A DNA stretch of 64,000 nt from an uncultured Mycoplasmatota bacterium. GTDB lineage: Bacteria; Bacillota_I; Bacilli_A; RF39; UBA660. The stretch lies in the NCBI GenBank assembly GCA_900545005.1, contig UQXO01000002.1, positions 65,901 through 129,900 of the forward strand, given 5' to 3'. The translations under genes and the position numbers were made by a program. Positions 12,594 through 15,238 of the stretch are shown here, one piece after another. The first letter of the stretch is position 1, and every line of letters starts with the position of its first letter. The notes under the pieces were generated by a model. The model saw only the letters and a program-made list of their open reading frames with translations, did not search any database and was not told where the DNA came from.

Positions 12594-13706
12594 CTAAAAC
12601 TTAAAGTTCTCAATTTTTTCTAAGTAGTTATCAATACTTTTCAAAAAGACATTTTGAATTTCACTTAAACTAGCTTGTTTTTTTAGCTTGGTAATAGCTA
12701 TTTTATCCCCAATTTTTTCTTTTAAAGTACTAAGAGGCATATCGACATTTAACTCGACTATTCTTTCGATTAGATTATCAGTTATTTCTTCAATATTCTT
12801 CTTGTAGTCTTCTGTTGTTTTATCTTTACTTAGAGTATCAAGGGCTAAATAGTTTAAATAGAATGTATTATTTAAATAATCTTTTATAATACCATTTTCT
12901 TCATAGTTTTTATGTTCTTTCGTAATTTTAGTATCATTAGCAACATGACTTTGAAGAAAATCCCAGAGTTTCATCGCATACTGGAAATTAGTATTTTTTA
13001 ATATGACATTAGTCTTCTTAATAGGGGGTATTACTCTAGCAACATGTTTTTTTCTTAAATCTTTATATACATCAGTATTTTGAAGCATGGTAATATTTTG
13101 TTCTAATTTTTCTATGCGTTCTTCAATAGAAAGAGAGGAATCAGTTGAATTATTATCAAGACTCGCAATTAAAGAGGAGTCAAGAGCTACATTAACATTA
13201 ATTCTTTCTTTACCTAAATTACATTTTCCTTGATATTCTAGTCTTTTTATATCTTTAACTTGCGAGGTCGTTAAAGTTTCTTTTTTCTTTAATTCCACAT
13301 AGTTTCGCATATTTTCAATTAAAGTATAAATAAGACGATTTTCATAAGTATCATAACTTTCATCTTTATTAATATTTAAAATCTTAGAGGGTTTAACATC
13401 GCCATTATCTTCAATCTTTTGAATAAAATTAGTATGTTTAGATAGATGTCTAATACTTTCGACTGTTACACGACGAGCTAATTCAATTTTTACTATTTCT
13501 TCTTCATTAACAATAAAACGATTAGGATTTCTTAAGATATTATCTAAGTATCTAATAGTATCTTCCATTAAATCTAACCATTCATAATCAACAACCACTT
13601 TTTCATAAGAAGTATTAAGATTCAGATTAGAGCGAATATTACTATTAAAATTTTGAACTTTGTTTTTATTATTTTCATATAATTTTATTATACTTAAATC
13701 TTCCAT
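12594..13706 (-). CDS. McrC N-terminal/DUF2357-like protein with no recognisable nuclease domain (370 aa)
   Basis: ..NPNRFIVNEEEIVKIELARRV..KDESYDTYENRLIYTLIENM.. resembles the (D/T)xENR region of McrC/DUF2357 proteins. It lies 8 nt downstream of the McrB-like gene. The C-terminal half is coiled-coil-like, and no PD-(D/E)xK motif is seen by eye. Confidence 0.4.
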   Translation of the reverse strand: MEDLSIIKLYENNKNKVQNFNSNIRSNLNLNTSYEKVVVDYEWLDLMEDTIRYLDNILRNPNRFIVNEEEIVKIELARRVTVESIRHLSKHTNFIQKIEDNGDVKPSKILNINKDESYDTYENRLIYTLIENMRNYVELKKKETLTTSQVKDIKRLEYQGKCNLGKERINVNVALDSSLIASLDNNSTDSSLSIEERIEKLEQNITMLQNTDVYKDLRKKHVARVIPPIKKTNVILKNTNFQYAMKLWDFLQSHVANDTKITKEHKNYEENGIIKDYLNNTFYLNYLALDTLSKDKTTEDYKKNIEEITDNLIERIVELNVDMPLSTLKEKIGDKIAITKLKKQASLSEIQNVFLKSIDNYLEKIENFKF

Positions 13707-13714
13707 AATTCACC

Positions 13715-15238
13715 TTATGCTAATTTCTTTAATCTTAGTAAATACTCGATACATTCAGCCATTTTACCTTCACCGAATTCATCATTTAAAAATTTTACAA
13801 AGCCATCAATTTCATCACGAATATAAGCCACGTTTAACTGTTCAAATTTACGTAGTATTTTACGGGCAATAAAATAATCAACCCCTTCAACTTCAGTACC
13901 ACCACAAGCCACAAAGACAGGAACAAACTTTTTCATATGAGCTACAATACGATTACCAAAGGCAATACGGAAATGTTTAATGACATAATTATCCATTTTT
14001 TCAATTTTATCTAAAGTTTCTTGACTAATTTGATTATCTTTAATCGCACTCTGAAATAAATTATCTAAATAAGAATAGTTTATATCTTGAGCAGGAGTAT
14101 TAACAGGTTCAAAAGCTTCACCCTTATCATTAATATCAATAGGCATGGCACGGTCGTATACTTTATCAGTTACCATGAAAGTAGAATCATCGTTATTAAT
14201 AGTCCCAATATACCACATATTAGGAGGGATTAATAGTTTCCCATCTTTTAAATGGATAGGGTCACTTTTCCAAGCACTAGGTACTATTTCTACTATCCAT
14301 TCCGATTTATTAGGCATTTCTAAAATAGATAACATTTCGGCAAAGTAATACTCAACACGGGAAATATTCATTTCATCCAAAATTACCGTATAAATATCAT
14401 CTGTATAACCAGCAACATACATCTCTTTTAAGACTTCTGTTTCATTAAATCTTTTGGTAAATTCATTGAAATAACCAAATAATTCGGTACGATCACGCCA
14501 TGATGGTTGGACAGAAGCAATACAAGAGTCATGTTTTAAAAATTTTCCCCACGCATACGCTAGTGATGTTTTACCGGTACCAGAAATACCTTGTAAAATA
14601 ACTAATTTCGTAGAGGCTAAGGCCGATACAAATAGTCTAATCATCTTAGGTGTATAATAAAGTTTTAACTGACTAGCCGCAAAATTACGAAAAAGCTCTA
14701 CTAACTGGGGTAAATCAAACGAATTATTATAATTAGCTACTTTATAATCCTTAAACTTCTCATCAACTTCATATAGTTTAGGAAAACGTATTTCCGTATT
14801 CTTATCCGTAATCTCATTATCTTCACTAACATTTTCAGTATCACTCTCATCAGGTCTTAATCCTAGTTTAGAGACCTTCATAGCTAAGATATCTTCTTTT
14901 TCTTTCATTAGAGTAGCTACTTTACTATTTAAAGTACTAACCTCTTCTAATAATGACTCTTGATCAACTAAAGACTTTCTAATTCTTATATACTTGCGAA
15001 GAAGAAAATATCCTCCTAGAAATATTAAGCCTAAAACAATAATCATTATTAGAATAGCAAGTCCTACTAAGAACCATTCGGGCATATTAAAATCATTCTT
15101 ATAATAATTAACAATATTTAAATAAGCTTTAAAATCAAATATTTTGCCAATGCCATTAATTAATCCCATGACAATAGAGTTAAGACCACTAAAAAACTGA
15201 GATAAAAATTCATATAAAAAGCGAAAAAATGTATCCAT
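13715..15238 (-). CDS. Membrane-anchored McrB-family AAA+ NTPase (507 aa)
   Basis: N-terminal hydrophobic segments (WFLVGLAILIMIIVLGLIFLGGYFLL) and a coiled coil. These are followed by Walker A GISGTGKTS, the McrB-type Walker B/signature VILDEMNISRVEYYFAEMLSILE, and YIGTINNDDSTFMVTDKVYDRA (compare McrB MNTADRS...D.AL.RRF). Confidence 0.75.
   Translation of the reverse strand: MDTFFRFLYEFLSQFFSGLNSIVMGLINGIGKIFDFKAYLNIVNYYKNDFNMPEWFLVGLAILIMIIVLGLIFLGGYFLLRKYIRIRKSLVDQESLLEEVSTLNSKVATLMKEKEDILAMKVSKLGLRPDESDTENVSEDNEITDKNTEIRFPKLYEVDEKFKDYKVANYNNSFDLPQLVELFRNFAASQLKLYYTPKMIRLFVSALASTKLVILQGISGTGKTSLAYAWGKFLKHDSCIASVQPSWRDRTELFGYFNEFTKRFNETEVLKEMYVAGYTDDIYTVILDEMNISRVEYYFAEMLSILEMPNKSEWIVEIVPSAWKSDPIHLKDGKLLIPPNMWYIGTINNDDSTFMVTDKVYDRAMPIDINDKGEAFEPVNTPAQDINYSYLDNLFQSAIKDNQISQETLDKIEKMDNYVIKHFRIAFGNRIVAHMKKFVPVFVACGGTEVEGVDYFIARKILRKFEQLNVAYIRDEIDGFVKFLNDEFGEGKMAECIEYLLRLKKLA

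Follow-up and report, generated by a model that had tools for sequence, protein, structure and literature searches.

A McrB-like GTPase with a predicted membrane anchor and a DUF2357 partner among SipW-type signal peptidase genes of an uncultured Mycoplasmatota bacterium

What is a relative of the McrBC restriction motor doing in a string of genes for signal peptidases and secreted proteins? The question is raised by a 64,000-nucleotide (nt) stretch of DNA from an uncultured Mycoplasmatota bacterium (GenBank assembly GCA_900545005.1, contig UQXO01000002.1, positions 65,901 to 129,900). We refer to this whole stretch as the window; coordinates without a locus label are positions in it, and every window feature given with coordinates lies on its minus strand. 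Two adjacent genes are at issue, one for a McrB-like AAA+ GTPase of 507 amino acids (aa) (13715..15238) and one for a McrC-like partner of 370 aa (12594..13706). An earlier note on this DNA had proposed either that the McrBC motor had been exapted for a membrane-associated machine linked to a fibre locus, or that an unusual defence module had come to be nested in the operon. We found that the pair very probably belongs to CoCoPALM, a class that has already been named, and that its arrangement, judged by synteny, is real and conserved in many gut Firmicutes and not the result of insertion by chance. With the arrangement known, the interest of the pair lies in its function.

The GTPase and its partner

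The 507-aa protein carries all of the McrB-type motifs that the earlier note had quoted: Walker A, GISGTGKTS, at aa 217; Walker B, ILDEMNISRVEYYFAEMLSILE, at aa 286 (ILDEMN); GTINNDDST at aa 345; and VYDRA at aa 360, in which the arginine is R363. In a phmmer search against PDB, only chains of E. coli McrB were matched (6ut6, 7vsr and 6hz4; E = 0.003-0.006). Comparison by hhalign of a 31-homologue profile (alignment A2) with E. coli McrB gave a probability of 96.8% (E = 2.9e-10, 166 columns), and the match starts upstream of Walker A and ends at the VYDRA arginine. The Pfam model AAA_5 matched 26 of the 31 homologues; the 507-aa sequence on its own did not reach the Pfam threshold. The AAA+ GTPase core, aa ~192-366 (14141..14665), aligns to residues 176-351 of E. 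coli McrB. The PADLOC model PDC-M26A also matched the protein (E = 7e-33), in the GTPase core only, and a literature search returned no mention of "PDC-M26". Three independent tests, by phmmer, hhalign and AAA_5, thereby assign the C-terminal 320 aa to the McrB family. Residues G217, G220, G222, K223, D288, N291, N348, D350 and R363 are invariant in alignment A2, and with its Walker A, Walker B, sensor and arginine motifs intact the protein is apparently an active McrB-type nucleoside triphosphatase (NTPase).

The sensor motif reads G-T-I-N348-N-D350-D351-S-T. We searched with the GTPase and obtained 8,204 cluster representatives (E ≤ 1e-3); among those of 150 representatives that cover the motif region, nearly all carry GT[AI]N-x-D-[DE]-ST. 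The N and the first D are invariant in this set, the next residue is D or E and rarely Q, and a few sequences vary at the flanking G or T. A gapless alignment to MNTADRS of E. coli McrB is also possible, and we preferred the NxD reading because of this conservation pattern.

Ahead of the GTPase domain, the earlier note had described hydrophobic helices and a coiled coil in place of a DNA-reading domain. This description stood: we found one strong hydrophobic segment at aa ~52-80 (14999..15085; Kyte-Doolittle values of 2.3-3.3 in a 19-aa window), followed by RKYIRIRK, and a heptad-like stretch of ~35 aa at aa 88-125 (14864..14977; crude heptad scan) that links the transmembrane (TM) helix to the GTPase domain. 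The first 36 aa, however, are amphipathic and not clearly transmembrane (maximum Kyte-Doolittle value 1.2), and a low-complexity acidic linker follows the heptads. In homologues the same position holds a single TM segment or two, and in alignment A2 the heptad region keeps its character but not its sequence. Across the N-terminal 190 aa, Pfam and NCBIfam searches yielded no domain match and no DNA-binding specificity domain. The N-terminal TM helix is thus predicted, together with the short coiled coil, to tether the protein to the membrane. Because of the positive-inside rule and the need for nucleotide, we placed the GTPase ring in the cytoplasm.

The partner gene begins 8 nt downstream, as the earlier note had said, after the spacer AATTCACC and with a Shine-Dalgarno sequence, AGGTGA, ahead of its ATG. 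Its McrC/DUF2357-like N-terminal region was borne out by a Pfam match to DUF2357 (PF09823) at aa 26-149 (13260..13631), with E = 2.7e-11 and 43.6 bits against a gathering cut-off of 23.3; the match includes the invariant Y121-E-N-R124 block, and the motif YDTYENRLIYTLIENM quoted in the earlier note is present at aa 118. PF09823 is the sole domain in all 240 partner homologues among the matches listed. The partner sequence itself occurs on 126 contigs, and near members of its cluster are annotated as "DUF2357 domain-containing protein" or "hypothetical protein". Both the 507-aa and the 370-aa proteins are present, identical, in public assemblies of metagenome-assembled genomes (MAGs) of uncultured "Bacilli bacterium", and an 87%-identical orthologue of the GTPase is found in Clostridium sp. 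CAG:1193.

In canonical McrBC, the N-terminal module of McrC plugs the McrB hexamer and stimulates GTP hydrolysis, and a nuclease module would be expected behind it. We detected none in the partner by Pfam, NCBIfam or PADLOC, the last of which gave no match to the partner at all. Aligning 42 diverse orthologues (26-66% identity) revealed two conserved blocks, from W43 to Y121-E-N-R124 and from P228-I-K-K-T-N to W248; past aa 250 only hydrophobic positions are kept, and the 42 sequences show no D...(D/E)xK pattern. AlphaFold2 models from a shallow alignment (A1; predicted local distance difference test score, pLDDT, 64.2) and a deeper one (A4; pLDDT 69.5) contain a long sheet of four strands against which helices pack; the C-terminal third is entirely helical, and long helices lie at aa 194-219 and 273-366. 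Foldseek searches of PDB with both models returned nothing at E ≤ 1e-3, neither McrC nor a nuclease; the matches seen were to TolC, CapZ and similar proteins, at uninformative structural TM-scores of 0.1-0.15. A partner profile (A3) compared with PDB sequences matched only designed helical proteins (E ≥ 0.01), and it showed no similarity to E. coli McrC. That protein sits in another Pfam family, and following the null profile comparison we rejected it as a reference in favour of DUF2357. The earlier note's failure to see a PD-(D/E)xK core therefore agrees with Pfam, conservation, AlphaFold2 and Foldseek. Because model confidence is only moderate (pLDDT 64-70), we word this as no nuclease being detectable, and the partner appears to retain only the N-terminal, DUF2357 module of McrC.

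The same note had read the rest of the partner as coiled coil. Its C-terminal half is indeed helical in the AlphaFold2 models, but no strong coiled coil emerged when the 370-aa protein was put through a crude heptad scan. Long coiled coils do occur in Clostridial orthologues. There, partners reach 700-853 aa instead of ~370 (loci L062, L065-L071, L074-L076 and L079; for example L065:11569-13743). Of five long partners scanned by Pfam, one matched the crescentin rod (E = 6.5e-7) and none had a nuclease domain; another long partner has a repetitive, Ala/Lys/Glu-rich helical stretch. The added length looks like coiled coil or low-complexity helix. We also observed that the most conserved stretch of the window partner, aa 62-119 (13349-13522), is left unfolded in both AlphaFold2 models (pLDDT < 50). 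A stretch that becomes ordered only within the GTPase ring would look like this, though that is speculation.

The class to which we assign the pair was named CoCoPALM by Bell et al. (eLife 2024, PMC11090510; preprint 2023). The passages of that paper that deal with it describe an NxD-motif McrB GTPase fused to an FtsB-homologous domain with transmembrane and coiled-coil helices, a McrC homologue that is usually coiled-coil as well, and neighbours of the signal peptidase family that are read as pilus-assembly factors. The NxD motif, usually followed by E or a second D, is given there as defining a non-canonical branch of McrB. In those passages the class receives three sentences and no gene-by-gene anatomy, and its analysis is deferred to a later paper; our literature search found no later CoCoPALM paper and no published function. 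The claim of the earlier note that both of its options would be new therefore fails, because the class had been described and named in 2024.

The gene cluster and its conservation

The pair lies in a single string of 12 minus-strand open reading frames (ORFs) that runs from 29542 to 11399 with intergenic gaps of -4 to 115 nt in the ORF list. To determine how widely this arrangement is shared, we performed a motif-based scan over one genome per species, which found at least 591 stretches encoding a relative of the GTPase. CoCoPALM-type systems are abundant; most of their carriers are Bacilli and Clostridia of the gut that are uncultured and have small genomes. For the best 80 loci (54-95% identity), ORFs were called and then searched with the operon proteins of the window; all locus counts below refer to this set. 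Its carriers are MAGs labelled Bacilli or "Tenericutes", Erysipelotrichaceae and Clostridia (Oscillospiraceae, Acutalibacteraceae and Ruminococcus sp. CAG:488).

A McrC-like gene is directly downstream in 75 of the 76 loci that have at least 1.2 kb of room for one. A SipW-like gene is found on the same strand within 5 kb in 77/80 loci and directly flanks the pair in 72/80, and a secreted-protein family occurs within 5 kb in 76/80. Two of the three loci lacking a SipW-like gene are contigs shorter than 4 kb. In most loci the gene directly downstream of the pair encodes a SipW peptidase of the 174-aa type. Writing sp for peptidase-type genes and g for others, with lengths in aa, the order in Bacilli is sp180, g185, (sp273), g199, g307, (g325), McrB, McrC, sp174, g217, and that in Clostridia is g243, g330, sp, McrB, long McrC, g330, sp. 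The association with SipW-like and secreted-protein genes extends to the single-TM relatives at L094 (46% identity) and L093 (34%), and relatives of the 330-aa and 243-aa families flank the most distant single-TM McrB homologues that we checked. An ordinary McrBC variant had been expected by the earlier note to show itself by a nuclease in the partner and by pairs sitting mainly in unrelated defence islands; the pairs we examined are almost always among SipW-like and secreted-protein genes. Plasmid and phage collections contained no full-length relative, and we rejected a mobile-element origin since matches there were confined to the GTPase core at less than 40% identity.

More distant relatives of the GTPase occur in other settings. 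At L084:4475-11585 and L087:4913-10889, 2-TM relatives (36-38% identity) form tandem units of a McrB-like, a DUF2357-like, a second McrB-like and an unknown protein; these units stand between a GH3/Fn3 enzyme and giant proteins (1789 to > 3176 aa), and no SipW gene was detected in them. They look like a different subclass of membrane-anchored McrBC. At L085:2899-6741 a relative whose N-terminal domain has 4-5 TM segments stands alone with its partner, of 663 aa, among unrelated metabolic genes; such 4-5-TM forms, of ~560-700 aa, are many among the 150 representatives. At L092 a 325-aa-like protein is encoded upstream of the GTPase, and the partner has 324 aa.

Three ORFs of the window cluster match SipW/archaeal-type signal peptidase I. 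The 174-aa peptidase (12061..12585), encoded 8 nt past the partner gene, matches TIGR02228 above cut-off (E = 8.8e-24) and keeps the catalytic motifs SESM and THRI. The 273-aa peptidase (17775..18596; TIGR02228 E = 6e-19, SipW model E = 4e-19) keeps SGSM and THRI; its TM segments lie at aa 15-33 and aa 142-160, and its C-terminal tail, of ~110 aa, is charged and helical. This tail should face the cytoplasm and is a candidate for contacting the GTPase or the partner, or the coiled coils of these two. In the 180-aa protein (19162..19704; SipW model E = 8.6e-13), SGSMEP has become DNDEMEP and the His motif THR is lost. Serine and histidine are also missing from nearly all of its 52 orthologues, while the other two paralogues keep both. 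This pattern marks the 180-aa protein as a conserved pseudo-peptidase, which may serve as an assembly platform or chaperone.

In six small or medium-sized proteins the Sec-type signal ends in [S/T]-[Y/F]-[A/G]-x-[Y/F] (TYAKY and SYAWF are examples). Such aromatic-rich ends resemble those of SipW substrates such as TasA. The secreted proteins, as found by a signal scan of the ORFs, have 185 aa (18608..19165; signal end KTYGLFET), 199 aa (17174..17773; FTYARYES), 307 aa (16239..17162; TFARF) and 217 aa (11399..12052; NSFAWF). The last of these is the final gene of the cluster, and its family is represented by 61 ORFs in the fetched loci. A 330-aa secreted protein (STATYAWF-type signal end) and a 243-aa membrane-anchored protein are encoded by co-conserved genes at 29615..31342. 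The 185-, 199-, 217-, 307- and 330-aa proteins have no Pfam or NCBIfam match, and none to TasA or camelysin (Peptidase_M73); for the 330-aa family, a profile search of PDB and Pfam searches with family members were also null. Where the earlier note had called the neighbours sipW/TasA-like, the first half of the label thus agrees with the TIGR02228 and SipW models, but the second is unconfirmed by Pfam, NCBIfam and PDB, and "TasA-like" should be taken as an unverified label for proteins of which only the signal-peptide end resembles SipW substrates.

Two further proteins of the string have no TM segment and are predicted to be cytoplasmic. The 325-aa protein (15251..16228) belongs to a family with 43 ORFs in the fetched loci, always directly upstream of the McrB-like gene, and gave no match in Pfam, NCBIfam, PADLOC or PDB, the last searched with a family profile. 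The 502-aa protein (19759..21267), Lys/Glu-rich and helical, has relatives in part of the loci (22 ORFs) and no Pfam or PADLOC match. The tight string opens with a gene for a giant 2719-aa surface protein (21383..29542) with an N-terminal TM/signal segment and Gly/Asn-rich repeats of the "YGG.N..G" type; local content of guanine and cytosine (GC) is 0.35 here against ~0.27 for the window (~27%). No Pfam model matched this protein, which is co-located in 24 loci and is probably an adhesin or cargo of the cluster.

The surroundings of the cluster in the window are housekeeping genes (ABC transporter, GGDEF, LiaF and Der GTPase). The GGDEF diguanylate cyclase gene (32617-33759; E = 7e-31) lies ~1.3 kb upstream of the cluster, and control of a fibre by cyclic di-GMP through this gene is conceivable. 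Another very large ORF, of 1928 aa, is found further upstream (43072-48858). At 7365-8799, ORFs of 347 and 87 aa have repeats that look YD/Rhs-like by eye (YDAYGN, YTYDNYGN). Next comes a membrane protein of 230 aa, which could be what is left of a toxin or immunity gene; neither this ORF nor the 347-aa one has a Pfam match at E ≤ 0.001. A scan of the operon for promoters and terminators was uninformative, because counts in this AT-rich DNA equalled the shuffled expectation.

What the pair may do

We can best explain the pair as a ring that is tethered to the membrane, driven by GTP and active in SipW-dependent fibre biogenesis, and not as a restriction enzyme, although we regard this as an even call. 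The broader statement that the pair serves the biogenesis of fibre or envelope, and does not act on nucleic acids, is somewhat probable. Of the two options in the earlier note, synteny favours the exapted motor linked to the fibre locus and disfavours a defence module nested there by chance. A specific picture of mechanotransmission, drawn by analogy, is more tentative. Six GTPase subunits would form a hexameric ring under the membrane, hung on six tethers of coiled coil and TM helix, and the partner would plug and activate the ring, as McrC does. Conformational asymmetry driven by GTP would pass through the tethers to co-encoded membrane proteins, for which the two active SipW-type peptidases, the pseudo-peptidase, the signal-anchored precursors of 4-6 secreted subunits and the giant surface protein would be the targets. 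The ring would thereby gate or power a step in making a SipW-dependent surface fibre: its processing, its polymerisation or its anchoring. That the ring and its nuclease-free plug might be the motor of an unrecognised Sec- and SipW-dependent pilus or fibre pathway, widespread in gut Bacillota, is possible but doubtful.

Several observations weigh against a role in fibre biogenesis. The functional link to the fibre genes consists of synteny, and our literature search showed no experiment on any CoCoPALM member. To our knowledge, TasA-type fibres need no cytoplasmic NTPase, so the task of a motor is left unexplained, and all characterised McrBC relatives that we know of are defence systems, from which the whole family descends. 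Pfam, NCBIfam and PDB searches did not show the secreted neighbours to be TasA-like. Membrane-anchored relatives without SipW genes exist (L084, L087 and L085), and the pair can therefore work without the peptidases. A single-TM relative of 40% identity (L092:721-8267), which may be a prophage-border copy, directly follows DUF859 and Phage_holin_1 genes. The top PADLOC match, PDC-M26A, is a defence-candidate model. Finally, with partner models at pLDDT 64-70, an effector fold, hidden or novel, could be present in the partner or in the 325-aa or 502-aa protein.

Some of this would suit a pilus-coupled anti-phage module, of the abortive-infection or surveillance kind, at the base of the fibre. 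Such a module would sense invading nucleic acid or perturbed secretion. Its response would be to shut down or shed the fibres, which would be phage receptors, or would go by way of an unrecognised effector. The defensive record of characterised McrBC relatives, the PDC-M26A match and the position of L092 just after DUF859 and holin genes all speak for it; the 325-aa and 502-aa cytoplasmic proteins could be its effectors, and the sister CoCoNuTs are predicted to be defence systems in the passages of Bell et al. (PMC11090510) that deal with them. We nonetheless consider it rather unlikely. No nuclease, HEPN or other effector domain was found in the pair or in the neighbours tested, the PADLOC match leaves the partner unmatched, and full-length copies are missing from the plasmid and phage collections. 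Gene order is stable across the 54-95% identity range, on small chromosomes and in housekeeping surroundings, unlike that of patchy defence islands. The idea that an ordinary type IV restriction system entered the operon by chance has next to no probability. All that speaks for it is that the two proteins are homologous to McrB and the McrC N-domain; it is already contradicted by the lack of any DNA-binding domain or nuclease in our searches and by the recurrence of the pair, embedded in one and the same string of genes, across 80 species-level genomes.

The synteny evidence on which the fibre explanation draws is shared in full by a machine for membrane quality control, in which an AAA+ ring, activated by the McrC-like plug, would extract from the membrane or the peptidase complex any cleaved signal peptide, uncleaved precursor or stalled subunit. 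The pair would then be a housekeeping helper for a secretion locus of very high flux and not an assembly motor. Many signal-anchored substrates and three peptidase paralogues in one operon would fit such a helper, as would the related pairs that adjoin giant secreted proteins without SipW (L084 and L087). The proposal is purely inferential, however, and in known structures the McrB pore holds McrC and not a threaded substrate, an occupancy that Niu et al. reportedly described in 2020; we judge it improbable. Since canonical McrB translocates DNA, a ring at the membrane beside a surface filament might also have kept this ancestral activity and move DNA or RNA in or out through a fibre-associated envelope machine. 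This is very unlikely: a TM helix and coiled coil stand where the N-terminal DNA reader would be, and in the cluster we found neither a DNA- or RNA-binding domain nor any channel protein or competence-like gene.

Should fibre assembly indeed be driven or gated by the pair, a McrBC restriction motor would have been re-used for envelope biogenesis, and this would explain how the carriers build a surface structure that is probably their main adhesive one. A true motor would be the first McrBC-family machine shown to act on proteins or membranes and not on nucleic acids, and would found a new class of filament assembly beside the sortase, type IV, chaperone-usher and TasA-type pathways. The value of the locus lies in experimental follow-up and not in discovery, the three sentences of prior description that we cite being bioinformatic. 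Handles for such work come from its anatomy: two active peptidases and a dead one, a peptidase with a cytoplasmic tail, the 325-aa companion, and partners that are short or long by lineage.

Comparison with known systems

Canonical McrBC (E. coli K-12; 6ut6, 6hz4 and 7vsr) shares with the window pair the Walker A, Walker B, asparagine sensor and arginine motifs and the two-gene order, in which a partner with a McrC-type N-domain follows the GTPase gene. It differs in having NxxD where the window protein has NxD, a DNA-binding N-domain in place of TM helix and coiled coil, and a PD-(D/E)xK nuclease in McrC, which we did not detect in the window partner. Because the DNA-binding N-domain and the McrC nuclease were both missing from our results, the pair is not to be filed as a type IV restriction enzyme.

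The nearest relative without a TM segment (P0283; 40% identity over the GTPase) is encoded in a locus with VWA, PP2C, kinase, UPF1-like helicase, CnuB and CnuC genes, which is a textbook CoCoNuT. As described in the passages of Bell et al. that we cite, CoCoNuTs (CnuB/CnuC) belong to the same NxD clade, have an N-terminal extension that is not a DNA reader, and often have McrC homologues without an active nuclease. They are soluble, with long coiled coils, and are accompanied by HEPN or other nucleases, UPF1-like helicases and TerY-P triads; the window locus lacks these nucleases, helicases and triads and has instead a TM anchor and a secretion/fibre context.

SipW-dependent fibre operons (tapA-sipW-tasA of B. 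subtilis and sipW-bsaA-bsaB-bsaC of C. perfringens, PMC11580942) resemble the window cluster in that archaeal/ER-type peptidase genes are interleaved with genes for small secreted proteins, and in the aromatic-rich [ST]-[YF]-[AG]-x-[YF] signal ends of those proteins. They differ in that neither operon encodes a cytoplasmic NTPase. The window secreted proteins, for their part, have no sequence match to TasA or camelysin, and the window cluster has three peptidase paralogues of which one is inactive. McrB is named in PMC11580942 only as part of an E. coli strain genotype. The coupling proposed here, of a cytoplasmic nucleotide-hydrolysing ring or dimer through TM or coiled-coil elements to processing or assembly beyond the membrane, has a parallel in PilB/PilC of the type IV pilus and in mechanotransmission of the FtsEX or MacB type. 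This likeness is one of analogy only: these systems show no homology to the window pair, have other ATPase families and other subunits, and the window locus has no prepilin-type signal.

To assess the FtsB homology described for CoCoPALM, we searched 31 homologues of the GTPase with the Pfam DivIC model, which matched one of them (E = 0.012), and compared the family profile with E. coli FtsB by hhalign (probability 0.6%). Homology is neither shown nor excluded by these results, because a TM helix with a short coiled coil carries little signal. The predicted topology of the GTPase, with its C-terminal domain in the cytoplasm, is the reverse of that of FtsB. Relative to CoCoPALM as a class, the coiled coil of the window partner is weak or short, with a long one in Clostridial orthologues, and the pseudo-peptidase, the 325-aa protein and the 502-aa protein go unmentioned in the passages of PMC11090510 on which we draw. 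Nothing essential differs from the class as those passages define it: the window locus has the NxD GTPase, the N-terminal TM helix with coiled coil, the DUF2357 McrC homologue, the signal peptidase neighbours and a probable sister relationship to CoCoNuTs.

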